From a phage: 64,000 nt of DNA. Both the position numbers and the translations under genes were made by a program. This document shows positions 1,620-50,812 of the stretch, in pieces. The DNA is taken from assembly GCA_025823825.1 (NCBI GenBank), contig GCA_025823825.1_4720.1. One strand, written 5' to 3'. The notes beneath the pieces were generated by a model. It was not told the DNA's origin. It saw only the letters and a program-made list of their open reading frames with translations, and did not search any database. Each line of letters opens with the position of its first letter. The first letter of the stretch is position 1.

Positions 1620-1878
1620 TTACGCCAGGCGGTACCACAATACCGGTACGAATCACAGCAGCAACTTCCTGCATGCCCTTACCCTTCAACGCATAGGTTT
1701 CATGTACCACATTACGTCGAGTCGTTAATCCAACAAATTTACATACAACCATGTTGTTTTCTGAAAGATAAGCGGTGTCGAGTTCACCGTGCAACAATTC
1801 TTTTTCTTTGGTATCAATACCTAATAACGCAATTTGATAAGCAGAAAGTTTCCAATAACGCATAATCGTCCTATTCAT
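1570..1878 (-). CDS. hypothetical protein
   Basis: 102 aa ORF; overlaps neighbour by 50 nt so boundaries uncertain. Confidence 0.3.
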   Translation of the reverse strand: MNRTIMRYWKLSAYQIALLGIDTKEKELLHGELDTAYLSENNMVVCKFVGLTTRRNVVHETYALKGKGMQEVAAVIRTGIVVPPGVSDNLDEVLHGTRKTAR

Positions 1879-2698
1879 AAACTATCAAATATTCTGAAAC
1901 CAAGTTTCTTGTTTCTACTTTTGCCGAAATCGTTCTTCGTACAGTTACAGGGTACAATTTTGTCGCCGAACTATAAATCTCTTCAGTCAACGCACAAGCA
2001 CTGTTGCTAATGATTGTAGGAATTCCCCGCGAGCGCAAGTTGTCAGCCTTTTCTGCAAGATAACGATGATCGTCTAATGTAAACCCCTCTTGAGTATAGC
2101 CCGTAAACGATGCGGTGGGGGAAATGGGAATATAAGGAGGGTCGCAATAAACGACGTCACCCGGAACCACCTTTTCAAGATGCTTCTGGAACCCACCACT
2201 TACAATTTCTACCCCCCCCCCCTCGACGAAGGCAGCCTGAAGATGGTTCGCTGCCAGACGCAATTCCTGTTTCGGGAAATAGACGGTCTTATACCGCCCA
2301 TGCGCAACATTAAATAAACCATCACGATTATAACGACATAAGCCATTGAAACCGTAACGGTTTAAATACATGAAGCAAACTGCGCGTTCCCACGGATCTT
2401 CAGCGCGGTTAAAACGTTCACGTATCTCGTAGTAGCTTCTGACGTCGGTAGGATCCGTTTGAAAAAGACGTTCCACTTCTTCGATGAAAGATTCTGGACG
2501 CGCTAGCAACGCAGACCATACTGAGAGAATATCCTCATTCGCATCACCTATCGAATACGCTGGGTACTTAAGAGCAAGCGTAACAGCGCCGGAACCAACG
2601 AATGGTTCAACAAGACGCTTTCCTTTAGGTAACACTTTTTCAATCTCAGGGATAAGCCTGGTTTTGTTCCCAAGCCATTTAAGAAATGTTCTGCTCAT
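1871..2698 (-). CDS. dam: DNA adenine methyltransferase (Dam family)
   Basis: 275 aa; N-terminal WLGNKTRL and FVGSGAV SAM-binding region, catalytic DPPY motif. Confidence 0.85.
   Translation of the reverse strand: MSRTFLKWLGNKTRLIPEIEKVLPKGKRLVEPFVGSGAVTLALKYPAYSIGDANEDILSVWSALLARPESFIEEVERLFQTDPTDVRSYYEIRERFNRAEDPWERAVCFMYLNRYGFNGLCRYNRDGLFNVAHGRYKTVYFPKQELRLAANHLQAAFVEGGGVEIVSGGFQKHLEKVVPGDVVYCDPPYIPISPTASFTGYTQEGFTLDDHRYLAEKADNLRSRGIPTIISNSACALTEEIYSSATKLYPVTVRRTISAKVETRNLVSEYLIVYE
2212..2222. repeat. C11 (G11 on coding strand) homopolymer inside dam CDS
   Basis: Eleven consecutive C on plus strand; encodes E-G-G-G-V in frame of dam. Confidence 0.9.
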
Positions 2699-3113
2699 CG
2701 ATTGGCGTTCCGATAATGTTGATGACTATTTCCGTTCGAACCGGATTGGTCAGTACGGCCTGCATGCGTTCAAGCATTGTTGGGTTATCCGTAACCACCA
2801 CATCGGCGTAACACAACGGATGACTTTCGAATGCTTCGGTGTCACTTACTAACAGAACACCCATCACATTTACGTATTGCGGTATGCGTCCACGGATGCG
2901 TTGCCACATGTCTTGAGTAAGGTCTTCGTTTTCTAATGCCACCACGATGACAGGGCTGATATTTACCGGGAAACGCGGATGCACCGTGCGGCGAAAGGTC
3001 ACCCAGCTTTCGACGTGGGATAATGCAAGTTCGAGAGAACAGCACTTTGGAGAAATCTGTATGTTTATTTGCTGAATCAATGAAAGGGGGTTTTGTACAG
3101 TCGCTTCAGCCAT
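2679..3113 (-). CDS. hypothetical protein
   Basis: 144 aa ORF contiguous with neighbours. Confidence 0.4.
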   Translation of the reverse strand: MAEATVQNPLSLIQQINIQISPKCCSLELALSHVESWVTFRRTVHPRFPVNISPVIVVALENEDLTQDMWQRIRGRIPQYVNVMGVLLVSDTEAFESHPLCYADVVVTDNPTMLERMQAVLTNPVRTEIVINIIGTPIDEQNIS

Positions 3114-6976: not shown

Positions 6977-7604
6977 TGATACCTTCTATTAGTTGTACAG
7001 CAACTTCTTTTTCGGTGCTATAAAAGAACTTGCGGTGGAACTGAACAAGAAGCTTTTCGAATTTACATTGAACGATCTTTTTGCGTTCGATATGACCCAG
7101 GGAGAGCAAAGCACCCATGCAACGTACCGCTTGTTCGAGAACTTGTTTCGCGGTATCGTGATCGTCCGGTAACGGTAAATCTTCCTCATCGTCTTTAGCG
7201 ATAAGGCGTCTGATGATGTTATCGATACGTATCTCATCACCGTTAATAAAAGCCCCCTTCTCCCAGTCATCGAATCGTTGATGGATTCGACGTTGTAAGT
7301 TGGCTCTGTCTTCCATTAACTCTTTCAACTGGCTTTCTAAGTGGGATACGGTACGGCGGTCGGTTTCAGTGAAGTTTTCCGATTCTTTGTACCACCAATC
7401 ATTACGCGATAGTAAATCGTTAACGCGCGAAATCGTCCGACGACACTCACTAACAAGCCCATCACCATTCGGTAGCTCCGTGCCGAAATAGCATTTGTAT
7501 TTATAACGCATAACACGGATTAAACGTTTCGCTAGAAAACCTTGCCTTTCCAGTTTCTTCTTCAGTTGTGTGTATTTCTCTTCTTTTGTTTCCATTAATT
7601 CCAT
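6963..7604 (-). CDS. hypothetical protein
   Basis: 213 aa ORF. Confidence 0.45.
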   Translation of the reverse strand: MELMETKEEKYTQLKKKLERQGFLAKRLIRVMRYKYKCYFGTELPNGDGLVSECRRTISRVNDLLSRNDWWYKESENFTETDRRTVSHLESQLKELMEDRANLQRRIHQRFDDWEKGAFINGDEIRIDNIIRRLIAKDDEEDLPLPDDHDTAKQVLEQAVRCMGALLSLGHIERKKIVQCKFEKLLVQFHRKFFYSTEKEVAVQLIEGINEVK

Positions 7605-7993
7605 GATGTTGTACCTCGTTCAGCAATCAGGAGAGTCGTGGTTGTGCTTTTCACTAATCTATTAAAGTCTTGATATATCCGCCTGAGGGATGGTTTCAAA
7701 TCACAATAACGGCTGAAATAAACCTTCAAGTCATCTTTTGTCACAGTCTCCGTATTTATTTTCGTAGAAACACCGAGATCGATAAACTCTTTTCTTAATT
7801 GGGATAATTCATCAAGAAGTCGATGGTGGCTTAGATAAATAACAGATTTATCGGATAACAACTCGCCGGTTATCCGGCTCTGGCGTTCATCGAAATATTG
7901 GAGCCGCCATTCAATTCGCTTACGTAATTTATCAAGTAAATCAACAAAAGCGGTATAGCTGTTAACGGCTAGGTTAACTTGACTCGTTATCAT
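7595..7993 (-). CDS. hypothetical protein
   Basis: 132 aa ORF. Confidence 0.4.
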   Translation of the reverse strand: MITSQVNLAVNSYTAFVDLLDKLRKRIEWRLQYFDERQSRITGELLSDKSVIYLSHHRLLDELSQLRKEFIDLGVSTKINTETVTKDDLKVYFSRYCDLKPSLRRIYQDFNRLVKSTTTTLLIAERGTTSWN

Positions 7994-10558: not shown

Positions 10559-11440
10559 TCAGTAACAGTTATAATGGGTTCCAAGCCGCTCCGGTTTTCT
10601 CAGAAGACTATCTTTAAGCGGTACGACGTCGATATCAACGTTTTCTGAATAATAACCATTAGAACTACCATACCAACGAATAACAACACATCCTTTTGCT
10701 GTACGAATATGGTAAAATGTCCATCGCGTACGTTTGCAAAAGTCGTCATCCTCGTCTCTTTCCTCGGTTCTTTCTTCAGCGCTAAGTATCTTCTCACCAA
10801 TAATGTCGTTAAGATCGCCATCGATGTCTTCAAGGTACACTTTTTCACAGCAATCTTGCTTATGGCAGAATTCAACAACGTTCCCATCGCCCCGATAGAA
10901 AAGAAGGGCAATGCTGTATTGTAGCTGTTCGGCCGTTAAGTCTGTCGCGCAATACAAACTTTGATCTTCGGTTATCACCAAGACATTGTTGATTACGTGT
11001 CCGGCAAGCGCTCCGATCTTATTTACCGTGATAATCGGACGAACGGGTTCAGGTTGAACGATCGGAATACGAACACAACCAATTAAGGCCATCCGTCCTT
11101 TCTTTGGTCTAACCGCAAGGTAAGGTGATTTTCTTGGGTGGTTATGCAGACGTATTTCTAATTCGTCAAATTTAATCCCGTATATACCTAAGAAACGATC
11201 GAACAACCGATGAAACTCATCTGTTGCTTCTTTCAACGTTATGGTGTCTACCGTGAGTTTATGTCCCCTGAACACCCGGGTTATATCGATAACGTCGAGT
11301 GTTTTAAAATGTATTTCCGTAAGGGGGTGATTTGTATTTTCCAGGTATGTAATGGTTCTTTGAACCGCGATTTTAGGTGACGCACCTTTAAAACGTTTCA
11401 GGTATTTAACACGATAGCGTGTATGATCTGATGTTAACAT
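10559..11440 (-). CDS. hypothetical protein
   Basis: ORF-track N-terminus reads through the upstream hairpin; start set at ATG 11440 (MLTSDHTRY) preceded by GGAGAGGAG. Confidence 0.5.
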   Translation of the reverse strand: MLTSDHTRYRVKYLKRFKGASPKIAVQRTITYLENTNHPLTEIHFKTLDVIDITRVFRGHKLTVDTITLKEATDEFHRLFDRFLGIYGIKFDELEIRLHNHPRKSPYLAVRPKKGRMALIGCVRIPIVQPEPVRPIITVNKIGALAGHVINNVLVITEDQSLYCATDLTAEQLQYSIALLFYRGDGNVVEFCHKQDCCEKVYLEDIDGDLNDIIGEKILSAEERTEERDEDDDFCKRTRWTFYHIRTAKGCVVIRWYGSSNGYYSENVDIDVVPLKDSLLRKPERLGTHYNCY

Positions 11441-11507
11441 TTTAATCTCCTCTCCCGACTTCAGAGAATTCTTAAAATCCGTTAGTTTTGATAGATGAGG
11501 TAAGACG

Positions 11508-11534
11508 GCATAAAAGCCTCCCGTAATGGGAGGC
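11508..11534 (-). terminator. hairpin GCCTCCC-GTAA-GGGAGGC followed on minus strand by TTTTATGCCG
   Basis: Inverted repeat seen directly; sits just downstream of the 11548 stop. Confidence 0.55.
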
Positions 11535-11547
11535 TTCATTAATCAGC

Positions 11548-13521: not shown

Positions 13522-14751
13522 TCACTTCAGAAGCTTAGACACCGCCATGCTTCGCGCCATCGCAACGTCATACGCATCCATGATCGCGTCACCGATAGCG
13601 GTATGACGGATCAACGGAATACCCATGTCTGGATACTCTTTGGTGCCTAAGATGGATACCGGTTTGTCTTGATACGCGGCAATCATCGAACGAATATCCT
13701 GAATCTGGTTATAACGGCAGATTGGTTTGAAGCCTGCCTTACGGAACCAATGTTCTAATTGAGGCCAATCTGTTTCACCACGAGCAAGATAATAGAAGGT
13801 ATCCTTACCGTAGTATTCGGTCATCTCATCACGGATATTGTTAACAAATGCATTTACTGTAGCAATGGCTTCTTTATAGTCCATCACTCCGTCATGCTGA
13901 AAACAATAGTCACGCGCTTCCTTCGGTGCTTTGGTTTGCCACCATTCTACCGTGGACTTACTAATATCACCGCCATCAGCGATTTGACCATAAACGTCGG
14001 GGAAGATATCAATACGTGGGCCGTTAATAACAGATTCTGGATTGACTAGATCGAAGAACAAGATACCGATTTCCAGCAGTACCCCGTTCTTTTCCAGACT
14101 GAGATTCTCCACATCCAGGCAAAACGCAGGTTTCTCTACCGTTGAAAAATCAAAATATTCTTCGAGACGCGGCGTTGGTTCAGCAGCGAGAAACGTCTCA
14201 TGAATGAACTGGGCGAATGTCTTATTCATTGCTACTAAGTCAATACCCAATTTACTTAGCAGAGGTATAATTGCGGGGTCATTCTGCTGTATTACCACAC
14301 ACTCTTGGTTTTTGATACAACGACCAAGTGAGTAAAAAAGATGAACGATGTCTAACGGTTTGTACGGGGCCTCAAATGTTGTTCCCTGGAACGACTGAGC
14401 TAGCACTTTATGTGTTTCTTCACGATGATCTATCAGTTGGAAAATAGCACAGCGCAGATAATGCCGTAATGTTATCTCGTGAAGGTGTGATGTATCTTCC
14501 TGAAATAACGTCATGAAACCGTGATACGTATAATACGCACCTCTTCGAATTTCTTCGAGGAGTTCTTTGTCCCCATTTGTTTCCTCCGATGTTATCGGTT
14601 CCATTTGATCGAGGATAGTGCTGAGAAGGTCACTGCCGTGTACCTTAAACAGTTTTTCAACGTCAAGATTAGGTAATGTCGCGATTGCTGCGTACATTAA
14701 TGTTTCTGCGGGATTAAGTTCTTTATTGTCAATTGTGATGGTTAAAGCCAT
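13522..14751 (-). CDS. DEDDh-type 3'-5' exonuclease domain protein with N-terminal domain of unknown function
   Basis: FCLDVENLS (D-x-E) and HTAIGDAIMDAY (H-x-A-x-x-D-A) in C-terminal half; start at ATG 14751 with GAGG upstream. Confidence 0.6.
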   Translation of the reverse strand: MALTITIDNKELNPAETLMYAAIATLPNLDVEKLFKVHGSDLLSTILDQMEPITSEETNGDKELLEEIRRGAYYTYHGFMTLFQEDTSHLHEITLRHYLRCAIFQLIDHREETHKVLAQSFQGTTFEAPYKPLDIVHLFYSLGRCIKNQECVVIQQNDPAIIPLLSKLGIDLVAMNKTFAQFIHETFLAAEPTPRLEEYFDFSTVEKPAFCLDVENLSLEKNGVLLEIGILFFDLVNPESVINGPRIDIFPDVYGQIADGGDISKSTVEWWQTKAPKEARDYCFQHDGVMDYKEAIATVNAFVNNIRDEMTEYYGKDTFYYLARGETDWPQLEHWFRKAGFKPICRYNQIQDIRSMIAAYQDKPVSILGTKEYPDMGIPLIRHTAIGDAIMDAYDVAMARSMAVSKLLK

Positions 14752-20074: not shown

Positions 20075-20553
20075 TGATTTAATTGCTCCAGAAATGCACG
20101 ACCTGATTTACTTGCTTTTAAATGCTGTTCTGCGGAAGTAAGCAGAAGATCGGTTGGTGTGAACGCAGCGCTACCTTTCCACTCTGTTTTCAGTTTACCC
20201 TCTTCGATACTGAACTGAATCAGTTGTTGGGTGCCGAAGTTAAGCGTGTTCGTCGCGGCGCTAAATACACCACCCATCATGCTGTAACCAAAGACTTTCA
20301 CGTTTTCCGTGTAGAAGTCATTGTCGATCAATTTGTTCTGGAGCTCGAGTTGGTCGGACGGTAGCAATCCCCCATCAAAGACGCTTAAAATACCAGCCAG
20401 GCGATACATACTCACCTTTCCTGAAACACCCACCACGTAATTGCCGTACAGGGTTTCTTCCAGTTTAGCAACAACGGTGCGATCGTCGGAGGTTTTCATC
20501 GAAACCTCAATACCATCACCAATTTCTGTTAACGTTAAATCAACGATGCTCAT
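20071..20553 (-). CDS. hypothetical protein
   Basis: 160 aa ORF, ATGA overlap with phosphatase. Confidence 0.45.
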   Translation of the reverse strand: MSIVDLTLTEIGDGIEVSMKTSDDRTVVAKLEETLYGNYVVGVSGKVSMYRLAGILSVFDGGLLPSDQLELQNKLIDNDFYTENVKVFGYSMMGGVFSAATNTLNFGTQQLIQFSIEEGKLKTEWKGSAAFTPTDLLLTSAEQHLKASKSGRAFLEQLNQ

Positions 20554-20575
20554 TCATTATTCTCCGCTTTCATGT

Positions 20576-21262
20576 TTAACACATGATTTCACCATGTTTC
20601 TTTTCGACATACGTATAAACATCATCCAAATAAGCAATGAGTTTATCACGATCCGCACAAAGCGATTTAATCGCCGCAATCTCTTTCATATAAAGCTGCT
20701 GACCTAACGCTGGATACGTAATCCAAGCGTAGCCGTCAGGCGCAAATTTAGAAATAAGATAATCGGCGGTTTCCTGTAATGCGAACTCTTTGCTCATCTG
20801 ACCGTAACGATGTTCGATTGCGCGGATACCAAAACGTTCGCTATCAAGACGACCCATATCCGCCAAACGAAGCACCTGAGAAGCAACCGAACTACGTGGA
20901 CCAGAGTACGAGGCACGATGTTCGGCAATAAGTACGCGTATCTCTTCGATGTCTTCCGGTGTGAAAATATGCTGCTCGTTACGAAGCAGGATAACCGACG
21001 CACGAATACCCCCGATAAGGTGGTGGTAGGTTCTGTTTTCATGGCAAGCGATATCATGCATAAAAGCAGCTGTTAATAGACGGCGGCGTTCGGTAGGTCT
21101 AATAATCCCGACCACATCAGCAAGTTCATTTGCCAGTTCAACAACAGCAAGCACATGTTCTTCTTGATGTGCAAGATCGTTCTTCCGAATATTTTCAATT
21201 ACTTCAGCGCGTGTTTCCTGAGATAAGAAATTTAAACAATCCAACGAATATAAAGATTTCAT
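20576..21262 (-). CDS. HD-domain phosphohydrolase
   Basis: 228 aa; H...HD signature (EEHVLAVVE...FMHDIACHE); AAAGAGG before ATG. Confidence 0.7.
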   Translation of the reverse strand: MKSLYSLDCLNFLSQETRAEVIENIRKNDLAHQEEHVLAVVELANELADVVGIIRPTERRRLLTAAFMHDIACHENRTYHHLIGGIRASVILLRNEQHIFTPEDIEEIRVLIAEHRASYSGPRSSVASQVLRLADMGRLDSERFGIRAIEHRYGQMSKEFALQETADYLISKFAPDGYAWITYPALGQQLYMKEIAAIKSLCADRDKLIAYLDDVYTYVEKKHGEIMC

Positions 21263-21303
21263 CGCACGTACCTCTTTGAATCTATTAATAAATTTTCTTT
21301 ACT

Positions 21304-21327
21304 CACGTAAGTAATATAGCCGTGAAA
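21304..21327 (-). promoter_or_regulatory. conserved promoter-like motif, copy 1 (minus strand TTTCACGGCTATATTACTTACGTG)
   Basis: One of 4 near-identical copies, all 50-70 nt upstream of minus-strand gene starts; core TATATTAC. Confidence 0.5.
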
Positions 21328-21399
21328 GGATTTGTGTTGGCCCGTTTCGATGCCCATCGTATTTTATGGATTGTCGAATGACGTCATTTTAAGGGACAT

Positions 21400-21440
21400 C
21401 CCCGGCCTCCTCCCCAGGAAAGGTGTGGGGAGGAGTTTTT
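21400..21440 (+). promoter_or_regulatory. hairpin CCTCCTCCCC...GGGGAGGAG plus TTTTTAT at the start of the plus-strand unit
   Basis: Same hairpin family as the terminators but here no plus-strand gene lies upstream. Confidence 0.4.
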
Positions 21441-21470
21441 ATCATACATTCTATTAAATCGAGCGCGATT

Positions 21471-23552
21471 ATGTTGGATAGAATCAATCGTCTAATGAAC
21501 CGAATAACGGTTAAAAATCAGAGTAACAATACCGTGCATATCGGGGGTATCGATGCCTGGCGTCTTTCAGATGACATTCAGCGAATATGGGGTACCTCCC
21601 GATTTATGAAACATATGTTTCGTAATTTCTCTTCTAGTGGACTCAGCCTCCACAACTTTTACCTCCCCGATTTCGTTTATATTCTCGAGACGATCATCGA
21701 AGCAAAGAATACCCGCAGTAACAAACGCATGCTGAAACACCTTATTGAGGTACTGCTACAGGAAACCTGGTTGCAAAATACCACAATCGAGCAACCTGCA
21801 ATCCTCGATAAAGCACGCATGAACAAAATGCTAACGCTCTCTTTGTTCGATTATCAAGATGAGTTTATCGACATCTATAACCGTAACGTACCTAAATACC
21901 GACTGAAAGGATACGTGTGTGCGATGGGTGCTGGTGCGGGTAAAACAATCACCGCACTGGCATTAAGCTCCGCAATGAACGTCGATGTATTTGTGGTCTG
22001 CTGTCCTAAGAACACCATGCGTTCAGCATGGCAATCCGATGTAAACAAAGCCATCGTTGACCCTGCAACAGAAACCGCGTTCTGGTCAGATACGATGCCA
22101 CCATCACAGCTGCAGAAAAGCGATAAGTACTATTTTCTGCATTATGAATCGATGGGTTTATTAAACGATGTAATGATCAAGCATAAACGCACAGCGAAGC
22201 GCGTGTTGATCGTGGTTGATGAAAGCCATAACTTCAACGACAAGAACAGTCAACGTTCCCAACGACTGGTTGATCTCGTACAGACGATGCGTCAGACCAT
22301 GAATGCGGATGTGCACGTCTTGTTTATGTCAGGTACACCTGTTAAACAAATGGGTTCTGAGATGATCCCATGTTTAGGTTGTATCGACCCGATGTTCCAA
22401 GGACAGGTGGTCGATAGCTTCAAAGCGATTTACGGTTTAACCAGCAGTCGCGCTAACGATATCCTCAGACATCGTCTTGGGTTCATGATGCATGTCGTAC
22501 CTAAAGAGGCTTACCGTAAAACCCGTCCGGAAGTTCAGGATGTTTACGTGAAGCTCCCTAACGGTAGCGATTATACCATCTCAAGTATCCGCGACGACAT
22601 GGCGATATTTGTACGCGATCGGGCGAAGTATTACAAGGATAACTGGGGACACTACAGAAAGATTTTTGATGACGCCTTGGACTACTATCGTAAGACTATT
22701 CGTACCGACGGAGAACGTAAAGAGCTATCTCGATACGAATCGATTGTTGCTCGTTTCCAGAAAGGTTACGACCCCGTCAGAGACAAAGAAGATGCGATGT
22801 TCTGCAACGCGTTTGAAAAACGTTCCATCATGCCGGTTCTTCCTTCTGATTTAAGGATTGCTTTCAAAGACGCTAAGAGTGTCATCAAGTACGTTGGGTT
22901 GAAAATTCAGGGTGAGGCGTTGGCCCGTGTTCTCGGTGCAGCCCGCATTCGGTGTCATGTCGATATGGTGGAGTACATCGACTTCGAAGGGTATATCAAC
23001 AACGCTGAAGCCAAGGTGTTGATCTTCACGTCGTACGTTCAGGTGGTTGAGCGTGTCGACAACATGCTTCGTGATGCGGGTTTCTTACCGGAACCCATTT
23101 ACGGGAAGACCAACAAAAACATCAACCAAATACTTGCTCGTTTACGCGACGATCCCGACAGCGGCCCCGCTATCGCAACATTTGATAGCTTAGCTGAAGG
23201 GGTTCCGATGTTGATGTGTAACGTGGGTCTCTTCTTGAACAACCCATGGCGTTCATCCGATGAAATCCAAGCCATCAGCCGTCTCGATCGTGTAGGGCAA
23301 ACGCAACCGGTTCGGATTTATCGTTTCATGTTAGATACGGGAAGCGAGGGTAACGTTTCTACACGTAGCCACGAAATCATGGAGTTAAGTCGGCAGCTTG
23401 TTGAAGAAATCACGGGTGTCAAATACGTGGTGAACAAGCAAGACGATGTTAACTTGCAAGAAACGTTGGCGATGGAAGGATACGATCAATACGTTACCGT
23501 AAACACCACGGAATACGATATTAAACCACGACCTGCGTTCTTGGAATGGTGA
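21471..23552 (+). CDS. SNF2/Rad54-family helicase-like ATPase
   Basis: LFDYQ, GAGAGKT (Walker A), VVDESHN (DExH), MSGTP, QAISRLDRVGQ; start at first ATG rather than GTG 21423 inside hairpin. Confidence 0.75.
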   Translation: MLDRINRLMNRITVKNQSNNTVHIGGIDAWRLSDDIQRIWGTSRFMKHMFRNFSSSGLSLHNFYLPDFVYILETIIEAKNTRSNKRMLKHLIEVLLQETWLQNTTIEQPAILDKARMNKMLTLSLFDYQDEFIDIYNRNVPKYRLKGYVCAMGAGAGKTITALALSSAMNVDVFVVCCPKNTMRSAWQSDVNKAIVDPATETAFWSDTMPPSQLQKSDKYYFLHYESMGLLNDVMIKHKRTAKRVLIVVDESHNFNDKNSQRSQRLVDLVQTMRQTMNADVHVLFMSGTPVKQMGSEMIPCLGCIDPMFQGQVVDSFKAIYGLTSSRANDILRHRLGFMMHVVPKEAYRKTRPEVQDVYVKLPNGSDYTISSIRDDMAIFVRDRAKYYKDNWGHYRKIFDDALDYYRKTIRTDGERKELSRYESIVARFQKGYDPVRDKEDAMFCNAFEKRSIMPVLPSDLRIAFKDAKSVIKYVGLKIQGEALARVLGAARIRCHVDMVEYIDFEGYINNAEAKVLIFTSYVQVVERVDNMLRDAGFLPEPIYGKTNKNINQILARLRDDPDSGPAIATFDSLAEGVPMLMCNVGLFLNNPWRSSDEIQAISRLDRVGQTQPVRIYRFMLDTGSEGNVSTRSHEIMELSRQLVEEITGVKYVVNKQDDVNLQETLAMEGYDQYVTVNTTEYDIKPRPAFLEW

Positions 23553-23559
23553 TTAAGAA

Positions 23560-23589
23560 GCCCTGCCGTCAAGCAGGGCTTTATGCTGC
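23560..23589 (+). terminator. hairpin GCCCTGC-CGTCAA-GCAGGGC followed by TTTATGCTGCG
   Basis: Inverted repeat seen directly, just after the SNF2 stop. Confidence 0.5.
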
Positions 23590-23647
23590 GTTTGTTGCAA
23601 GATCGTATGACGTATATGCGTTGTACTTATTTAAAAAGGCAGAATAA

Positions 23648-25102
23648 ATGAAACTCAAACAAAGCTGGAAAGACGAACTTCTCGCGTTAGTAAACAACAA
23701 AAACAGTTTACAGCTGACATTAGACGACGTAAAATTTGAACTAACTGAACCGGTAAGCGAAGTGCCCGGAACAGTCGTCGTTACGATCAAACCGAACGAT
23801 GATAGCCGTTACTTTAACGAGCAGTCTCTGACCTACATCCGTCGAGACATCGCTAAAAACTTCACCGGGATCCCGTTACGTGTTATCGTTAAAAATGATA
23901 CCGTCGTAAGGGATATCATCAATACGATTGCTGAACGTTACGGATTGGTATTTGACACAACCGTTGACTTCCTCGAATCAGAGCTGAATAAGCAGATTAC
24001 GTTCGAAGACACCGGTATTAAAGACATTACGGTTCCGGTTGCAAACACGTCTTATGTTTGGGCTGGTAATCTTCAGTTCAATATCGCTAACGATACGTTA
24101 AGCTTGATTACGATCATCAAGGAAACCAATCTTACGAATCTGGTTTATCTGGATGGCGTTGAAGCTGACACAACCGGATCGTTATTATTAGCAACGGCCT
24201 CGATTATCGACGATAACGGAAATACCGAAACAACTGAAGGTGTCCTTGATGCCGAGTACTTCCAGAATGTCCTGAATGTCATGGTTCGTTATGGTGATAT
24301 TACCAGCGAACAAATGCAACAAGCAATGCAGACAATTAACCAAAACGAAGACGTTCGTGAAGTGGAGGTTAAGTCATACGGCGACTCTGAGCTGTTGGTA
24401 ACCACAAAGAAAGATTGGGCTATCGGTAACCTTAAGGGCGCTATGGCAGTTGTTCGCAACGCTCAACCGAAACCAATTCAGTACATTCTCAAAACGAATG
24501 GCGGCTCCGTTACACTAGCATTGGACGGTTGGACAAATATTTCCATCGATTGGGGTGATGGGAATAAAGCAACATTACCAGGCGGACAAACTCGCGGATT
24601 CCACGAATACAGTGACGGTACAGAACGTACGATTGTAGCTACTGGTGTCCTCTCAAACCCTGAAGCACCAACACAGACACAAACCATCAGCGGCGATAAC
24701 ATCACTGAAATCGTTGACTGGAACAACGGATTACCGCAGGCTGTACAATTAACGGGATTAACCAGTTTGATTAAGGTTCCCGATTATATCCCGTCATACT
24801 GGACAACGTTGGAAAGTTTGTTCGAGAGCTGCTCATCGATAAACGACGTAAACATCACGAAATGGAATACCGGTAACGTCACATCAATGAAGAATTTGTT
24901 CTTTGGCTGTAACGTCTTCAACCAACCGATCATCGTATGGGATGTTACCCATGTAACAAATATCGACAATATGTTCTCGGGATGTTCGGCGTTCAACCAG
25001 GATCTAAGGATGTGGTCATTCCCAGCGGATACTTCCCGCAACAACTACGATAACGGTGCTACAGCCTGGCGGTCAGAGTATCGTCCAAGCTTCGATTTGT
25101 AA
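23648..25102 (+). CDS. DUF285/BspA-like repeat protein
   Basis: 484 aa; C-terminal repeats of F.GC..FNQ.I..WDV..VT...MF; family assignment from memory. Confidence 0.6.
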   Translation: MKLKQSWKDELLALVNNKNSLQLTLDDVKFELTEPVSEVPGTVVVTIKPNDDSRYFNEQSLTYIRRDIAKNFTGIPLRVIVKNDTVVRDIINTIAERYGLVFDTTVDFLESELNKQITFEDTGIKDITVPVANTSYVWAGNLQFNIANDTLSLITIIKETNLTNLVYLDGVEADTTGSLLLATASIIDDNGNTETTEGVLDAEYFQNVLNVMVRYGDITSEQMQQAMQTINQNEDVREVEVKSYGDSELLVTTKKDWAIGNLKGAMAVVRNAQPKPIQYILKTNGGSVTLALDGWTNISIDWGDGNKATLPGGQTRGFHEYSDGTERTIVATGVLSNPEAPTQTQTISGDNITEIVDWNNGLPQAVQLTGLTSLIKVPDYIPSYWTTLESLFESCSSINDVNITKWNTGNVTSMKNLFFGCNVFNQPIIVWDVTHVTNIDNMFSGCSAFNQDLRMWSFPADTSRNNYDNGATAWRSEYRPSFDL

Positions 25103-25117
25103 AAAAAAAAAAAAAAA
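25101..25117. repeat. A17 homopolymer tract overlapping the stop codon of the DUF285 gene
   Basis: Seventeen consecutive A counted on plus strand. Confidence 0.9.
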
Positions 25118-25128
25118 TAGTTAGCATA

Positions 25129-25167
25129 TCTTCCTCCCTACCCATAACGGGCGGGGAGGAAGGTTTT
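25129..25167 (+). terminator. hairpin CTTCCTCCC...GGGAGGAAGG followed by TTTTATGGCG
   Basis: Inverted repeat and T-run seen directly between convergent genes. Confidence 0.55.
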
Positions 25168-25180
25168 ATGGCGTTATAGC

Positions 25181-25519
25181 TTAGAACCAGAGTTCTTTCA
25201 TGAGGTAGGCTTCCATATCGTAGATAAGCCACGCATCGGGGATTTCTAAAGGATCGTCTTCGGTTAAGGTCAGCATGTGCAGGGCGAACGCACGCTTGAT
25301 ATCTTCCAACAGCTTATCATCACCGTAATCCTCGGGTAGTTTACGGTCAACCAGCTGGGTTTGTTTATAGACGTCGCGGAACGCTTCAGGGCTGTGTTTG
25401 TCCATCGGGAATTGTTCAGCAGCCTGAACCATCGTCAACGTCCAGCTTACAACATTGTAACGCTCACCGTTAATTTCACTGAACTGATCATCGATTAAAC
25501 AGATTTGTTGTACGTTCAT
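25181..25519 (-). CDS. hypothetical protein
   Basis: 112 aa ORF. Confidence 0.4.
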   Translation of the reverse strand: MNVQQICLIDDQFSEINGERYNVVSWTLTMVQAAEQFPMDKHSPEAFRDVYKQTQLVDRKLPEDYGDDKLLEDIKRAFALHMLTLTEDDPLEIPDAWLIYDMEAYLMKELWF

Positions 25520-26409
25520 TCATTTTCTCCATTCTTATCTTGGTCGCAATCACACTCTTCGACGTCTTTCTTACTTAAACGTAAGACACCTAGTGCAGCA
25601 TGCTTGAGTTCTTGCAAAGCGCTTTTCAGCTGACCTTCTTCATCGAAATCAAAATACTTCTCGTTGTAGCTTAATGCCGGAATCATATTTACGAGAGGTT
25701 CGATGGCGGGCATCAGCATTTCAATGACGACCTTAGGATCGACAAAACGTTCAAACCCTTCAGGAAGTTTGCTCGCTACAACCTTATCGTTCTTGATGTA
25801 GAATTTGTTCTTGAATAGATCGTCAAGAATAGCATTCTCTTCATCCGTACGTTTTGCGTGAGGACGATCGATCATCTGCACAAACACACCACTCAACGCT
25901 TCAGGCAAAGTCGGATTTTCGCGAAGATAAGTTCCGGCCGGAATTTCAATGTCGATCTTCGTCCACTCAACAACCTGATGGTCTCGCGTATAGATGACGT
26001 CAACTTCCCATGCCAGACCATCAGCGCTTTCTACGGTGTAACGTGTTTTCGCCTGGCCTTCAGGAGCCATACGTTCGATCGCATCAAACATCTCGACTGG
26101 GATTTCGACTTCGCTTTCCGTTGCATCGCCTGGACCGCGATACACCTTCGTGGTCATGATGTATTTCGGTTCTTCGTTATCGATCTGTATAGCTCGTGCT
26201 CGTACTTGACCTTTCACACCACCAACGGCCGTGTTATCAAACAACCATTGATGTTGCACCATATGTTCGATTTTTGATGCGACTTGACGAAGACGTTCAA
26301 CACCGTCTTCGGCCAGTTTACCAAAGAAGACCAGCTCACGTTCCTGCTGTGTCTCACCACTTAACATCATTAAATTGGCGATTTGTTTCACGCCTCTTAC
26401 TTTTGACAT
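25516..26409 (-). CDS. hypothetical protein
   Basis: 297 aa ORF. Confidence 0.5.
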   Translation of the reverse strand: MSKVRGVKQIANLMMLSGETQQERELVFFGKLAEDGVERLRQVASKIEHMVQHQWLFDNTAVGGVKGQVRARAIQIDNEEPKYIMTTKVYRGPGDATESEVEIPVEMFDAIERMAPEGQAKTRYTVESADGLAWEVDVIYTRDHQVVEWTKIDIEIPAGTYLRENPTLPEALSGVFVQMIDRPHAKRTDEENAILDDLFKNKFYIKNDKVVASKLPEGFERFVDPKVVIEMLMPAIEPLVNMIPALSYNEKYFDFDEEGQLKSALQELKHAALGVLRLSKKDVEECDCDQDKNGENE

Positions 26410-26477
26410 ACATGCTCCGGTTATAAGGGCCTGCTTCGAGGCCCTTCATTGATTTTTGATTCCACCAAACGCTATCG

Positions 26478-28052
26478 TTACAATTCAAAATCTTCATCGA
26501 TAACACGCTGGGTAAGCACTTTGTCGCTGAAGAACTCCACCTTGCGCTGATGGTATTTACGGTGCGCTTCGATAGAAGTACATACCAGATACCAGAACGT
26601 TGGCGTCATTCCTTCAAACTTTCCTTTCAGCTGACGCAGTCGTCCCAACACCTGAATGTTACCGGTTCGTGACCCCATCGCTAATGTCATGAACGTCATC
26701 ACCAAGTCAGGAAGGTCGATACCTGTACCTGCCGATTTCACCGTTGTAACGCTAATATCGTTATCCAGCAAGACCATGAAGTCTTCTTCAGCAGTATAAG
26801 GACCGATTTCTAACTCAGGGATACGTTCACTGAGATAATGCGACAACGACTTACACATATCGACGGTTGCACAATACACCAGCATCTTCATACCTTCCTG
26901 ATACTGGTTCATGAAACCCTTGATAATAACGGTATAGATGAAGTTAAAATACGCGAGTTTGAGTTGCTTGTTCTTCATGATAGACTGTTCGAATATCGTG
27001 TGCGAATAAGCTCCACCAAACCCTTTGTATCTGACTTTATCTGTACTGCGTAGTCGGTACGTTACCGCATTTACCGCAATGTATTTCTTGTATTCGCCTT
27101 TCGCATAACGGGCTTCTTTCGGATACATCAAATACAGCATCTGTTCGATAAACGGATCATCGGATACCGCTGTTGCCGACAGATAAATGATTTCCGGAAT
27201 ATTGGCGTAACACTTGACCTTAAACAAGAAATGCAATGCTTCGTGACACTCGTCATGAATCAGCAAACCTATGCCGGTCTTTTCCCAAAACTCAGCGGGA
27301 TGAAAGGCATATGGCGCAACGCAGTTATTCTTCTCGTAGTCCGCAATATAACGTTGGAACATGTTCAAGGAGAACAATGCGATTTTGAAGTCGAGTTCAC
27401 CTTGTTCAACCAAGGTTTGAAACTCCAACATACTGTAACGAGGAATGTCGGGATGCGGTGGATCCTCCTTAGCGTTCCCGCGTATCTCGATAACGTCCCC
27501 TGGTTCCATCCCGAAGAAGTTCAGCAGTGAGCTTCGCCAACCTGGCATGTATCTCGGCGACAGAATGATACCCGTCCGTACACCGCGTCGGAAGGTGATC
27601 TCCTGCGACATGGCCGTTTTTCCTGACCCCGTTTGAGCGGTGTTTAGGCTCATTCTGAAGGGGGTATCCTTACCCCCGTCCATGTACTCCAACCATTCTT
27701 GCTGATCTTGACGCCATGGAAACTTCCATTTCTTTACGAACTCCACTTCTTTACCTGGTACCGGATCGTGATAGACGATTTCCAACCACTCTTTTCGTAT
27801 CCCTCGGGAAAAGATAAAATCCAAAAACGATTTCAACTGTTCACGGAGTAAGTATACCTCGCTATAATCGCTTCTTGCCGCGGCATACGTGTTTATGGTA
27901 TCGGTAACCATTCTCCGTGTACGAGGGTCACGCCGTTTCCTCAGATGCAAACAACGGTCTCGAAGGTAATGGCCGATAAGATGGGCAAATCGAAGTCCGT
28001 ATCCGCTCAGCCTCATGCCGTGCGAGAAGACGTCGATACGAGCTAACTTCAT
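26478..28052 (-). CDS. superfamily 2 DExH-box helicase
   Basis: 524 aa; AQTGSGKT, HDECHEA, SAT, QVLGRLRQ motifs. Confidence 0.75.
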   Translation of the reverse strand: MKLARIDVFSHGMRLSGYGLRFAHLIGHYLRDRCLHLRKRRDPRTRRMVTDTINTYAAARSDYSEVYLLREQLKSFLDFIFSRGIRKEWLEIVYHDPVPGKEVEFVKKWKFPWRQDQQEWLEYMDGGKDTPFRMSLNTAQTGSGKTAMSQEITFRRGVRTGIILSPRYMPGWRSSLLNFFGMEPGDVIEIRGNAKEDPPHPDIPRYSMLEFQTLVEQGELDFKIALFSLNMFQRYIADYEKNNCVAPYAFHPAEFWEKTGIGLLIHDECHEALHFLFKVKCYANIPEIIYLSATAVSDDPFIEQMLYLMYPKEARYAKGEYKKYIAVNAVTYRLRSTDKVRYKGFGGAYSHTIFEQSIMKNKQLKLAYFNFIYTVIIKGFMNQYQEGMKMLVYCATVDMCKSLSHYLSERIPELEIGPYTAEEDFMVLLDNDISVTTVKSAGTGIDLPDLVMTFMTLAMGSRTGNIQVLGRLRQLKGKFEGMTPTFWYLVCTSIEAHRKYHQRKVEFFSDKVLTQRVIDEDFEL

Positions 28053-34677: not shown

Positions 34678-34712
34678 CCCTCCCACAGCGTAAAGCGTAG
34701 GGAGGGCATTTA
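34678..34712 (+). terminator. hairpin CCCTCCC...GGGAGGG followed by CATTTATGCCG
   Basis: Inverted repeat directly after the 34672 stop. Confidence 0.55.
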
Positions 34713-37661: not shown

Positions 37662-39248
37662 TTATTTTTTTCCTCTTAAATTTACTACGTGTTCATTTAA
37701 TCGAACAACTAATTGCACAAGTTGCTGACGGATATCTGCTGGACAAAGCATCAATCCTTTACGATCAGCTGGGACTTTCTCAAGGATTTCCGGGCCTGCT
37801 GCTGAAACATCCCAGTCCCATTCACAAAACGCATCGGCCACCATGTTAATACCGACAACCGGTAAAGTTGTACGTTCATCTTCATACATGGCGTGTGGAT
37901 ACAATTTATTGACAGTAATGATCTCCTGTGGTTTTAATTGGTGGATAATCTGATAAACATCGTCGCGTTTAACCTGGATACCTACGGTCAGCGCTGCCAG
38001 TTGAGGAAAACCCCAATGGTCTAATAAGCAAGCTGCAATCGCTAACGCTTTTGCTTGATGCACGGCTTCAATCGGTGCCAGACTTCTCGCCGGAAGATGG
38101 CTATCAAGCAACCATTGTGCCAGTGCTCGGCATCCACGGTTGATTGGTTTTAACTCAACGCTGTCATCGTGCTTAGCGTACGTGTATCCGTCGTAACGTT
38201 TTGCGATACGCGCATACATGTCTTCAACTTTACCGTAAGGTGCCGTTTCGTCGACGTCGTGTAACACACGTTCCATCTGGGTAAGATACGCGATGTCAAG
38301 AATGAGTACACGCGGTGAACGTTTATCTTTCACCATCAACGCATCAATCACGCCTTGACTGTCTTCATCTTGCGCGTTCCCTCGTGGGGTTTTCTCACGA
38401 ATCGGTCCGCTGAAACGTCGTTCCGTACAAAGGTTATTCACATAGCTAAAGATCAGTGTTACCAGATGCGTACAACTCACCAACACCCCATCTTTAACGA
38501 CAGGCTGTACGGCTTGGTCCAAGTCGCGTACGGCGAGACGGCGGACGATGGCTTGTGAACGCAACCAGCCGGGCACTTTCTCCGTCGACATGTAATCCAC
38601 GGTCATCGACAGCGTGATCTTTTTATCACCCGTCTGTGCGCGGATATAGTCTTCCAGTCGGTCGTAAGCGGCGATATCATGAATGCGTGTTTTATACATC
38701 AACGACATAGCCACTTCTTCTTTACGGACTGTCCCGTACGTTTTCCCTGCGTCAATCAGAAACTCTGCCCAAATCGGCACCATCAGACGGACATAGATCG
38801 CTAACGCTGTTAACTCAACGTAATCATTTCGTAAATAGGTTTTCTCGGGTATATCGTCCTCACCTAATGTTGTTTTCATGTCCGGTGGTAATTTTACCCA
38901 ACCTGGGGTATTACACAACGCCAGAATCTCTTCATACACAACCGGTTTGTAAATCTCACCAACAGCGCGACTCAACTCCTCCATTTGTTGTTGTGGAGCA
39001 ATGTAGTTATCCATCGCTTCACGTGCTTTAACGAACCCTTCGAAGATGTCGTCAATTCGACGTGGGTTCTTTTGTTCTATCCAGGCGAGATACTTGTTAA
39101 TCTCCCGCATCTGATTGCTAGCCATATCCCCATCAATCTTGATGTAACCCTGGCCTGAAAATTCCACAGTACGTCCATCACGATGTTTGATGAGATAGTG
39201 ATCCAGCTTTTCTTTTCCTTGCGTCGTAATGACGGGCACTATGTGCAT
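37662..39248 (-). CDS. hypothetical protein
   Basis: Start set at ATG 39248 (MHIVPV) with AAGAGG upstream; ORF-track N-terminus is leader. Confidence 0.55.
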   Translation of the reverse strand: MHIVPVITTQGKEKLDHYLIKHRDGRTVEFSGQGYIKIDGDMASNQMREINKYLAWIEQKNPRRIDDIFEGFVKAREAMDNYIAPQQQMEELSRAVGEIYKPVVYEEILALCNTPGWVKLPPDMKTTLGEDDIPEKTYLRNDYVELTALAIYVRLMVPIWAEFLIDAGKTYGTVRKEEVAMSLMYKTRIHDIAAYDRLEDYIRAQTGDKKITLSMTVDYMSTEKVPGWLRSQAIVRRLAVRDLDQAVQPVVKDGVLVSCTHLVTLIFSYVNNLCTERRFSGPIREKTPRGNAQDEDSQGVIDALMVKDKRSPRVLILDIAYLTQMERVLHDVDETAPYGKVEDMYARIAKRYDGYTYAKHDDSVELKPINRGCRALAQWLLDSHLPARSLAPIEAVHQAKALAIAACLLDHWGFPQLAALTVGIQVKRDDVYQIIHQLKPQEIITVNKLYPHAMYEDERTTLPVVGINMVADAFCEWDWDVSAAGPEILEKVPADRKGLMLCPADIRQQLVQLVVRLNEHVVNLRGKK

Positions 39249-39300
39249 AACAACCTCTTTTCGCGGTTCCCTGTTAAAACGTCTTCTGTGACGTCTACCA

Positions 39301-39324
39301 CAAAGGTAATATAAGCGTGAATAA
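39301..39324 (-). promoter_or_regulatory. conserved promoter-like motif, copy 2 (minus strand TTATTCACGCTTATATTACCTTTG)
   Basis: TATATTAC core about 55 nt upstream of ATG 39248. Confidence 0.45.
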
Positions 39325-39452
39325 TTTTGGATTCCGGCTGAGTTATCGCTCAGCATGCAAGGCATCCCGCCGAAGCGAGACACCTTGCACTAACGGAAAA
39401 TATTCGCGTTACCTTCTGAATCGAAGACTCAGAATGCGATGCTAAAGCATTA

Positions 39453-44577: not shown

Positions 44578-44601
44578 CACCTAAGTAATATAGCCGTGAA
44601 A
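44578..44601 (-). promoter_or_regulatory. conserved promoter-like motif, copy 3 (minus strand TTTCACGGCTATATTACTTAGGTG)
   Basis: About 65 nt upstream of ATG 44512. Confidence 0.5.
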
Positions 44602-46737: not shown

Positions 46738-47113
46738 CTGTTATCGACTATATCTTCATCCTCGTTGCGAGGAGTCTCCCGTTTTGGTCTGTGTTTAACA
46801 GAGCCTACTCTACTCGACATCGCGTCTTTCGATAGTCTGTGAGCACACATCTTAACGAACATTCGTGGATTCCTAAACAGGTGAACGTTCTTGTTGAGAT
46901 GCTTCGCTGCGGATTATTCCCGTCCTACCTCTTTTACCCTACCCAGTTCATTACGCTGGCCCTCATCTGTGTCACCACGATGAGTTGGTGTGTAGTCCGA
47001 TTACAGAAACTTCCCGTCAATTAGAGAGTTTTAACTACGTTCCTGTTACCAGAAACCAGATCCCGACGGTATCAATAAATCAACGTAAGTTATTGATTTA
47101 ATTGAAAAAACTG
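46738..47113 (-). ncRNA. group I intron B (ORF-less), boundaries approximate
   Basis: Minus-strand AATTGACGGGAAG (P), AATCCGCAGC (Q), GCTCACAGACTATCG (R), AAGATATAGTCG (S) in canonical order; GGTAGGGTAAAAG P5-like. Confidence 0.6.
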
Positions 47114-47126: not shown

Positions 47127-47492
47127 CTTAATCTTCAGTATGGTTCGCTACTCCATACCCGTACGTCATGTACTGCTTACGTCTTTCACGTAAGAAGAGA
47201 CTATATCTTTCACCCTCAGCATTATCTGGTCGGGGCTCCCATTTCGGCGGTCAGATGACCGGTGGTTTCCCACGCCGCTTGGCCCTAACGCCCGTAAGCG
47301 ATAGTCGTTGAGCGCATCTCCGTTCTGGAGACTTCGCTGCGGATTCCCCAATCCTTGCCGCTTTTACCATACCTGAATGATTAGTTCAGCCCCACGCTCT
47401 GTTCCCAGGCGTGGTTGGTGGACAAGGCTCTAAGTAGGTTCCCGCATTAGAGAGTTCTGCGTGACAACATTTCTGCGTTACTGGGCCTAACG
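47127..47492 (-). ncRNA. group I intron A (ORF-less), boundaries approximate
   Basis: Minus-strand TAATGCGGGAACC (P), AATCCGCAGC (Q), GCTCAACGACTATCG (R), AAGATATAGTC (S); GGTATGGTAAAAGCG P5-like; GCCC near 5' end can pair with exon GGGU. Confidence 0.6.
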
Positions 47493-50723: not shown

Positions 50724-50788
50724 TTGGGATTCCTCTTTTCTTAAACTTTATTAAATGACGTCATTGAATCAGCTTCTACTCGCTCATT

Positions 50789-50812
50789 CACCTAGGTAAT
50801 ATAACCCTGAAA
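50789..50812 (-). promoter_or_regulatory. conserved promoter-like motif, copy 4 (minus strand TTTCAGGGTTATATTACCTAGGTG)
   Basis: About 70 nt upstream of ATG 50723. Confidence 0.5.

Follow-up and report, generated by a model that had tools for sequence, protein, structure and literature searches.

Within a 64,000-nucleotide stretch of phage DNA (here called the window; NCBI GenBank assembly GCA_025823825.1, contig GCA_025823825.1_4720.1), two plus-strand genes stand inside an array that is otherwise almost entirely encoded on the minus strand. These genes, which we call A and B, very probably encode two conserved virion proteins: an SNF2 translocase that is packaged in the head, and a fibre subunit that is anchored by a DUF7941 module, tipped with leucine-rich repeats (LRRs) and equipped with an exchangeable distal cassette. 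The original prediction, made from the sequence alone, had recognized an SNF2-like ATPase and a DUF285/BspA-like repeat protein, which Pfam confirms, but missed the N-terminal DUF7941 domain of gene B and took the pair for an unusual, possibly acquired accessory module in a replication region, a view that our analysis contradicts. The following features carry our interpretation:

21471-23552, plus strand: gene A, SNF2-family ATPase of 693 amino acids (aa), orthologue of Goslar gp160, phiKZ gp203 and RAY gp131
23648-25102, plus strand: gene B, DUF7941-LRR protein of 484 aa, orthologue of Goslar gp161
23657-24193, plus strand: DUF7941 module of gene B (aa 4-182), conserved, with a probable role in anchoring or oligomerization
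24353-25099, plus strand: exchanged distal cassette of gene B (aa 236-484), comprising a beta-sandwich and an LRR solenoid

Virion association of the orthologous proteins

A megablast search with positions 20500-26500 matched a single organism, Escherichia phage vB_EcoM_Goslar (Goslar), at 92.3% identity over the whole query. Gene A and Goslar gp160, a DEAD/DEAH box/SNF2 helicase, share 98.8% of their residues, with a synonymous divergence (dS) of 0.19 and a ratio of nonsynonymous to synonymous divergence (dN/dS) of 0.03, while gene B is 78.6% identical to gp161. Mass spectrometry of purified Goslar virions has found about 11 copies of gp160 (roughly 7-17) and about 111 copies of gp161 per virion, whereas the neighboring Rad25-type helicase gp164 was present at about 0.4 copies and hence is not packaged (10.64898/2026.04.21.720040, Table S4). 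Likewise, the phiKZ orthologue gp203 is proteolytically processed, packaged in the head, and co-pellets with the genome (PMC12676376), and RAY gp131 shows a capsid-like localization (10.1101/2023.02.24.529968). The other sizeable plus-strand genes of the matching Goslar region also encode virion proteins, namely, gp172 (inner baseplate), gp233 (neck adaptor), and gp245 (about 16 copies). Several minus-strand genes there do so as well, so that orientation is no strict rule.

Gene A encodes an SNF2-family ATPase

Gene A matches the Pfam profiles PF00176 (SNF2-rel_dom, 31.7 bits against a cut-off of 24.9), ResIII (46.6 against 22.5), and Helicase_C (30.1 against 23.5), as well as phrog_62 (5e-89), so that the hidden Markov model searches bear out the first reading of this gene. 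Its matches among PDB sequences are the SWR1, ISWI, Snf2, and Sulfolobus Rad54-like ATPases, and its fold is of the SNF2 type, nearest to remodeller ATPase cores. The motifs GAGAGKT (K158), DESH (250-253), SGTP (287-290), and QAISRLDRVGQ (600-610) make up the complete set of motifs I (GxGKT), II (DExH), III (SGTP), and VI (QxxxRxxRxGQ) of the two RecA-like lobes. Across 39 diverse orthologues that we aligned, no variation occurs at the Walker A lysine, in the DExH box, in the SGT motif, or at the Q/R/R of motif VI. Gene A encodes an SNF2-family superfamily 2 (SF2) ATPase with intact catalytic motifs, and we predict that the protein translocates along double-stranded DNA.

Homologues of gene A were found by tblastn in 205 phage records, all phiKZ-like, and 202 of these cover 94-100% of the protein at E values of 1e-115 to 0. 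We had considered chimallin as a denominator for the frequency of the helicase, but it diverges too fast to be usable (101 tblastn records versus 205 for the helicase). phiKZ gp203 and RAY gp131, both phrog_62 proteins, share 33-35% identity with gene A over 94-97% of the protein (E about 1e-115 to 1e-125) together with the SNF2 motifs. In Goslar and all orthologues the protein begins at the ATG corresponding to position 21471; the GTG at 21423 that an open reading frame (ORF) listing also allows lies inside a hairpin and was rejected as a start.

Several orthologues carry LAGLIDADG intein-like inserts, unlike gene A of the window. These orthologues, from a set made up of P0132, P0147, P0160, P0194, P0206, and P0220 and the phages EL, PA1C, and Vibrio VP4B, are about 1000 aa long with LAGLIDADG (PF14528) inserts or appear as two tblastn pieces, which suggests inteins or homing-endonuclease insertions in the helicase gene. 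A label of PF12699 (inner-body domain) on the long homologue P0172, which if real would link the helicase to internal proteins of the head, was dropped because our own Pfam scan did not reproduce it.

Membership in a defense family was not found. The best NCBIfam match, DISARM DrmD, reaches 37.7 bits against a cut-off of 610, PADLOC defense models score at most 40 bits and cover one helicase lobe, and gene A belongs to none of DrmD, Zorya ZorD, BREX BrxH, and Dpd DpdE; its neighbors are phage genes. Some records annotate homologues of gene A as RapA, the bacterial SNF2 ATPase associated with RNA polymerase. We did not find any RapA-specific likeness in sequence or structure beyond the generic SNF2 core, RapA models giving generic helicase-lobe matches and no membership. 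The poxvirus proteins NPH-I (D11) and the small subunit of VETF are structural neighbors of gene A, far weaker than the chromatin-remodeller ATPases; the likeness is a matter of functional speculation and not of family membership.

Gene B joins a DUF7941 module to an LRR solenoid

The N-terminal part of gene B matches Pfam DUF7941 (PF25613) over aa 4-182 with 84 bits against a cut-off of 27, as well as phrog_1037 and phrog_2935 of PHROGs (virion structural protein). Near the C terminus, DUF285 matches aa 386-467 (24803-25048) with 75 bits, and both this profile and the LRR solenoid fold identify a DUF285/BspA-like LRR (PARCEL repeat) domain. The AlphaFold model, which is confident from residue 180 on, consists there of a helical linker, a small beta-sandwich, and the C-terminal solenoid. 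With Foldseek, the top and only significant PDB match of gene B was 9xqd_0 (E value 7.5e-4, probability 1.00), at a low TM-score and with an N-terminal model of modest confidence. PDB 9xqd represents the outer peripheral region of the phiKZ baseplate. Searches of PDB sequences with gene B, by single sequence and by profile, gave no significant match.

The DUF7941 family provides the context for these observations. According to a preprint of April 2026 that combines cryo-electron microscopy (cryo-EM) and mass spectrometry, gp161 is one of ten DUF7941 proteins of Goslar, and in three of them, gp86, gp92, and gp161, the DUF7941 module is followed by carbohydrate-binding, glycoside-hydrolase, or LRR domains (10.64898/2026.04.21.720040). 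Goslar gp22 was shown to form filaments, and head-to-tail filaments with baseplate anchoring were proposed for gp22/gp23 from AlphaFold and negative-stain EM. phiKZ gp126-gp127 were fitted into peripheral-baseplate density, and DUF7941 proteins were proposed to form a baseplate-anchored "fibre cloud" for host recognition (10.64898/2026.04.21.720040). Gene B shares the DUF7941 module with Goslar gp22/gp23 and phiKZ gp126/gp127 but adds the helical linker, the beta-sandwich, and the LRR solenoid, and it is encoded apart from the main DUF7941/tail-fibre cluster. Its closest paralogue in Goslar-like phages, a protein of 584 aa that is 47% identical, is encoded among tail-fibre and other DUF7941 genes.

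RefSeq names gp161 as a protein of the BspA family, and we considered gene B as a bacterial cell-surface protein of this kind. Unlike the BspA-like/DUF285 surface proteins of Bacteroides, Mycoplasma, and Listeria (e.g., PDB 4fs7), gene B has its repeat domain grafted onto a phage virion module. At its N terminus (MKLKQSWKDELLALVNNKNS...), where the DUF7941 domain lies, we found no signal peptide, lipobox, or lipoprotein-like hydrophobic segment. Being phage encoded, virion associated in Goslar, and without a secretion signal, gene B was rejected as a member of that class. Jumbo phages often carry DUF285 domains, in one genome at as many as 16 places, so that repeats of this type are nothing out of the ordinary in them.

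The distal half of gene B has been exchanged between lineages

Over 35 kb, the window aligns to Goslar at 96% nucleotide identity, and the most diverged stretch of this alignment is 24351-25250, at 71-76%. The distal half of gene B (aa 236-484) is just 64% identical to that of gp161, with synonymous divergence that is saturated: dS is 1.09 for codons 236-484 versus 0.24 for codons 1-235. For the distal half dN/dS is 0.24, while the DUF7941 module shows a dS of 0.28 and a dN/dS of 0.06. Comparison of 28 alleles shows about 96% conservation over the first 180 residues and variability in the rest. Such a much older divergence of the distal half under purifying selection points to exchange by recombination with another lineage and not to rapid positive selection in place. 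In other words, the pattern indicates that the distal half was swapped between lineages while the DUF7941 anchor was kept. Receptor-binding proteins of phages classically show just this combination of a conserved N terminus and a distal domain that is exchanged.

The right boundary of the diverged block is an A tract, 17 nucleotides long in the window, 11 in Goslar, and 10 in L008, a Goslar-like relative, and the 60 nucleotides that follow the tract, which include a terminator, are near-identical in all three. In at least eight Goslar-like contigs (e.g., L013 and L014, 3543-4816) two ORFs take the place of the gene B orthologue, one of 153 aa for the DUF7941 N-terminal domain and one of 271 aa for the linker and LRRs, divided at residue 152/153 and overlapping by 4 nucleotides; a 61-residue deletion takes out the beta-sandwich (aa 268-328). 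The split and the deletion underline the modular build of the protein.

The pair occupies an inherited position in the genome

The window, which corresponds to about gp120 to gp228 of Goslar, encodes chimallin, PhuZ, subunits of the non-virion RNA polymerase (RNAP), and DNA polymerase, all hallmarks of nucleus-forming jumbo phages. Together with the Goslar match, these genes identify the phage as a Goslar-like, nucleus-forming jumbo phage (Chimalliviridae). The ORF listing confirms the two-gene island that the original prediction had outlined: exactly two long plus-strand ORFs are present here, 21423/21471-23552 (709/693 aa) and 23648-25102 (484 aa), between one minus-strand neighbor that ends at 21262 and one that starts at 25181. 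The flanking genes are as follows:

20576-21262, minus strand: HD-hydrolase gene, the first gene of the leftward array
25181-25519, minus strand: gp162-like gene, convergent with gene B

Goslar has the same gene order and orientation, the same flanks (HD hydrolase to the left, gp162/gp163 to the right), and each of the three hairpins described below. The order HD hydrolase, helicase, DUF7941-DUF285 protein, gp162-gp163 is kept in a phage of the Goslar lineage whose gene B is just 60% identical. In L015, which represents a sister clade with a helicase that is 58% identical, the slot behind the helicase holds two tandem DUF7941-DUF285 genes. The pair is thus present in the sister clade and in all Goslar-like loci that we examined.

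Beyond these clades it is the helicase gene that keeps its place. In seven of seven other loci (phiKZ, RAY, Noxifer, EL, Miami, FLC9, and L016, a distant uncultured relative known from metagenomes) it is inverted relative to its upstream neighbor. The co-oriented genes behind it are unrelated between genera: gp203 is followed by the virion structural proteins gp202 and gp201 in phiKZ, gp131 by the glycine-rich gp130 in RAY, 231 by 230 and 229 in Noxifer, and 166 by 165 in EL, while 214 of Miami stands alone. Among the post-helicase genes compared, only phiKZ gp201/gp202 match Noxifer 229/230, and gene B has no homology to those of phiKZ, RAY, Noxifer, EL, and FLC9.

The base composition of the pair is native. 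GC content runs without deviation over the locus (0.43-0.47 versus a window mean of about 0.46), with 0.462 for gene A and 0.445 for gene B against 0.460 +/- 0.021, and both codon usage and third-position GC content of the two genes lie inside the range of the other genes of the window. GC skew reverses its sign over 22-25 kb, as expected from the strand flip. Repeats around the pair do not exceed chance level, no mobility genes flank it, and the window holds no paralogue of either gene. From these comparisons we conclude that the pair is not a recently acquired island and that its plus-strand orientation is an old, inherited genome layout. The conservation across the family in the same position, with a defined core function, that had been named as evidence against an acquired module is largely what we find. 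What survives of the accessory idea is that the gene behind the helicase varies by genus and that the distal half of gene B has been exchanged.

A putative terminator hairpin separates the two genes

The right edge of the pair carries the A17 tract and hairpin that had been pointed out before, but two further hairpins, at 21405-21442 and 23560-23588, had been overlooked or not kept apart. The elements behind the two genes are as follows:

23560-23588, plus strand: hairpin with TTTATGCTG, an intrinsic-terminator element between gene A and gene B (z = -3.2)
25101-25117, plus strand: A17 tract, its first two positions being the AA of the gene B stop codon TAA
25130-25171, plus strand: hairpin with TTTTATGG, a terminator common to the convergent gene B (plus strand) and gp162-like gene (minus strand)

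In Goslar the hairpin at 23560-23588 has compensatory stem changes and a longer stem. The hairpin at 25130-25162 has a 14-bp stem followed by TTTTAT (z = -4.4 on the plus strand and -3.5 on the minus strand); the whole terminator is 100% conserved in Goslar and differs by 2 nucleotides of the stem in L008. Since hairpin/T-tract elements lie at both 21405-21442 and 23560-23588, genes A and B do not form an uninterrupted operon, and the hairpin between them together with the tenfold difference in copies between gp161 and gp160 argues that they are separate units.

The motif TTTATGCYG occurs eight times in the window versus 1.1 expected (at 11506, 19480, 23580, 31645, 34709, 45442, 54355, and 58403), each time directly after a GC-rich hairpin and in gene sense. 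We considered that the combination might represent a terminator plus a late promoter (TATG), but the same element stands behind plus-strand genes that have no co-oriented successor (gp172 at 34709; gene B), so that we read the combination as an extended terminator consensus in this group of phages, not as a promoter.

The divergent spacer and the leader of gene A

The spacer between the HD-hydrolase gene and gene A spans 208 bp (21263-21470) and is 99% identical to Goslar, versus 96% for the neighboring genes. It contains the following elements:

21303-21327, minus strand: early (virion-RNAP-type) promoter consensus TTTCACGGCTATATTACTTACGTGA, pointing left, upstream of the HD-hydrolase array
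21361-21382, plus strand: conserved box ATTTTATGGATTGTCGAATGAC (ATTTTATGG...TGTCGAATGAC), containing TATG (21365-21368)
21377-21389, no strand assigned: palindrome AATGACGTCATT(T), with a second copy at 50753-50765 in the 5' untranslated region of the chimallin gene
21405-21442, plus strand: strong hairpin with T tract, terminator or attenuator like, between the TATG box and the start codon of gene A

The original prediction of a divergent promoter region thus holds for the early-promoter consensus, which faces leftward on the minus strand. This motif matches the predicted early promoters of phiKZ and 201phi2-1 (PMC7058600 Table 2) and is conserved in Goslar, L008, and L015. As a 19-mer it occurs four times in the window versus 0.05 expected, always on the minus strand and upstream of genes. 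The early-promoter-like copies, about 25 nucleotides long (TTTCACGGCTATATTACYT.GGTG), lie at 21303-21327, 39304-39322, 44583-44601, and 50794-50812. One of them is upstream of the chimallin gene, and the copy at 39304 implies that the ORF at 37662-39383 really starts at a downstream ATG and not at the GTG at 39383.

The box at 21361-21382 is kept in L008 and in L015 although the surrounding intergenic sequence has diverged. In phiKZ, TATG with a G at +1 is the experimentally defined core of late, non-virion-RNAP promoters, although TATG motifs are frequent and insufficient for promoter activity (PMC4666361). We regard the box as a putative non-virion-RNAP-type promoter or as the start of a leader of gene A. 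The palindrome occurs twice in the window versus 0.14 expected, both times shortly downstream of a putative promoter; L015 does not keep it. The Goslar annotation lists the hairpin at 21405-21442 as a terminator; in L008 its stem shows a compensatory change from A-T to G-C, and L015 has a different hairpin at the same place.

A similar arrangement is found in more distant relatives. In phiKZ and RAY, too, an early promoter and a hairpin lie in the divergent spacer, the phiKZ spacer combining, like that of the window, an opposite-strand early promoter with a plus-strand hairpin, and Noxifer likewise has a plus-strand hairpin upstream of the helicase gene. Beyond the hairpin we found no convincing alignment with the upstream regions of the phiKZ and Noxifer helicases. 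The spacers upstream of phiKZ gp203 (L003, 5700-6000) and Noxifer 231 (L010, 3176-3389) both have GGCATAA at the start and then a GC-rich hairpin, and in phiKZ about 240 nucleotides of GC-rich, possibly structured sequence without an Rfam match precede the start codon of gp203. Rfam, searched with the region, the entire window, and six related loci, yielded no family in or near the locus. A scan for sigma-70 promoters showed no enrichment (20 found versus 27 expected), which fits the host-RNAP-independent transcription known for phiKZ.

Other differences from Goslar

Elsewhere the window does contain a genuine strain-specific accessory gene. It encodes an N6-adenine DNA methyltransferase of the D12 class (Pfam PF02086, 2e-60; 1871-2698, minus strand) in a segment of about 850 bp that is missing from Goslar (window 1863-2714 versus Goslar 125430-125464). 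Further window-specific insertions are a DUF7448 gene of 326 aa (10559-11539, minus strand) and a gene of 132 aa without a family match (7595-7993, minus strand). In the region of the non-virion RNAP beta' subunit, two group I intron-like elements score below the Rfam gathering score of 50: that at 46738-47104 (minus strand; 46.9 bits, E value 2e-10) matches the annotated intron of Goslar, whose adjoining HNH endonuclease gene gp186 is absent from the window, and that at 47177-47513 (minus strand; 32 bits, E value 5.7e-6) lies in about 370 bp missing from Goslar.

Divergence from Goslar also peaks, at 79-88% nucleotide identity, at 13851-14750 (orthologue of the 3'-5' exoribonuclease gp147) and at 27051-27650 (orthologue of the Rad25-type helicase gp164). 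The gp164-like ORF is longer in L008, L013, and L014 (753-876 aa), with a weak LAGLIDADG match in L014.

Discussion

We favor the view that genes A and B are two separately terminated virion-protein genes. The SNF2 ATPase would be packaged in the head at low copy number together with the genome and would then be co-injected to act on the incoming DNA. Its most likely task might be to aid the packaged virion RNAP or to clear internal proteins bound to the DNA, by analogy with NPH-I; a protective role like that of DarB is a further candidate. In poxviruses, the SF2/SNF2-like NPH-I and the small subunit of VETF, likewise such an ATPase, are packaged with the virion multisubunit RNAP. As to gene B, the N-terminal module (aa 1-180) may plug into head-to-tail DUF7941 filaments anchored at the peripheral baseplate, and the beta-sandwich and BspA-like LRR solenoid would then form a ligand-binding tip. 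That this tip recognizes the host surface is suggested by the family context and by the mosaic pattern of divergence.

Some observations weigh against this view. For the window phage, the presence of both proteins in the virion is transferred from Goslar. The Goslar preparation also held the non-virion assemblies chimallin and PhuZ (10.64898/2026.04.21.720040), so that the low-copy gp160 could be a contaminant there, although the phiKZ and RAY data agree with packaging. phiKZ gp203 proved non-essential in transposon mutagenesis (PMC12676376). The Goslar baseplate map contains no DUF7941 density, and its authors call the fibre-cloud model speculative (10.64898/2026.04.21.720040). Finally, the promoters of both genes, and with them the likely timing of expression, are deduced from motifs.

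Could the pair instead be a horizontally acquired accessory module, for instance of defense or counter-defense, inserted in the array of replication genes? The change of genes behind the helicase from genus to genus and the age of the divergence in the distal half of gene B, much greater than that of its surroundings, would fit, and some records name helicase homologues "DarB-like antirestriction"; SNF2 helicases do occur in defense systems, and ZorD is among the top structural neighbors of gene A. Yet phages across the family keep the helicase in a similar place, which already largely refutes the idea, the pair extends into the sister clade, composition and codon usage are native, flanking repeats and mobility genes are lacking, the scores of defense models are tiny, and both Goslar proteins are virion components. 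We consider acquisition highly improbable. Slightly less so, but still very unlikely, is that the helicase and the LRR protein function as a pair, e.g., as a complex injected into the host. They stand next to each other in Goslar-like phages and in the sister clade alike, they share an orientation, and both are virion associated in Goslar. Against this stand the conserved terminator hairpin between the genes, the tenfold difference in virion stoichiometry, and their discordant evolutionary histories; moreover, the phiKZ helicase is associated with the head and the DNA whereas DUF7941 proteins map to the peripheral baseplate, and in other genera the helicase stands alone or with unrelated partners. 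About as unlikely, or marginally less so, is a role of gene B as an injected or intracellular LRR effector that binds a host protein, with DUF7941 serving just as a packaging tag. Against it, the model of the outer peripheral baseplate of phiKZ includes a DUF7941 protein, the closest paralogue comes from a cluster of tail-fibre genes, the combination of a conserved N terminus with an exchanged distal domain follows the pattern of receptor-binding proteins, and DUF285 recurs many times in other jumbo phages.

A different matter is whether the TATG box and hairpin upstream of gene A constitute a regulatory RNA device, either a small RNA or an attenuator, that sets a low dose of the packaged helicase. 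Promoter-proximal terminators upstream of a late virion gene, as well as small RNAs, have been reported for 201phi2-1, phiKZ, and PhiPA3, which makes such a device plausible; box and hairpin persist from clade to clade, the changes being compensatory or replacements, and the intergenic region is closer to Goslar than are the neighboring genes. Conversely, the z-score for the fold of the whole leader is just -1.5, Rfam offers no match, and TATG motifs are common and do not suffice for promoter activity. On balance we hold the device to be possible but somewhat doubtful; it is compatible with the view of two separate virion-protein genes and does not replace it. More speculative, and in our opinion rather unlikely, is that the plus-strand helicase slot is an ancient "landing pad" for lineage-specific virion or host-recognition genes, gated by the leader with its TATG box and hairpin, while the helicase works in an NPH-I-like manner with the injected virion RNAP. 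The cargo of such a landing pad may include one or two DUF7941-LRR genes in the Goslar-like clades, gp201/gp202 in the group of phiKZ and Noxifer, and the glycine-rich protein in RAY. If this is true, the leader, acting as an attenuator or small RNA, would set the amount of packaged helicase.

For Goslar and its relatives, the two genes, their presence in the virion, and the suggested part of DUF7941 proteins in host recognition are already in the literature, and as a discovery the genes and their likely roles therefore carry little weight. What our analysis of two separate virion-protein genes adds is the trace that recombination has left in the distal half of gene B, a pattern that has the look expected of a host-range determinant and makes the distal cassette of gp161-type proteins a concrete unit for experimental swapping. 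Likewise, the gene of the head-packaged SNF2 ATPase stays inverted from genus to genus while the virion cargo that follows it varies, and the conserved leader with a terminator-like hairpin ahead of the helicase gene may provide a handle on the dosing of low-copy packaged enzymes.

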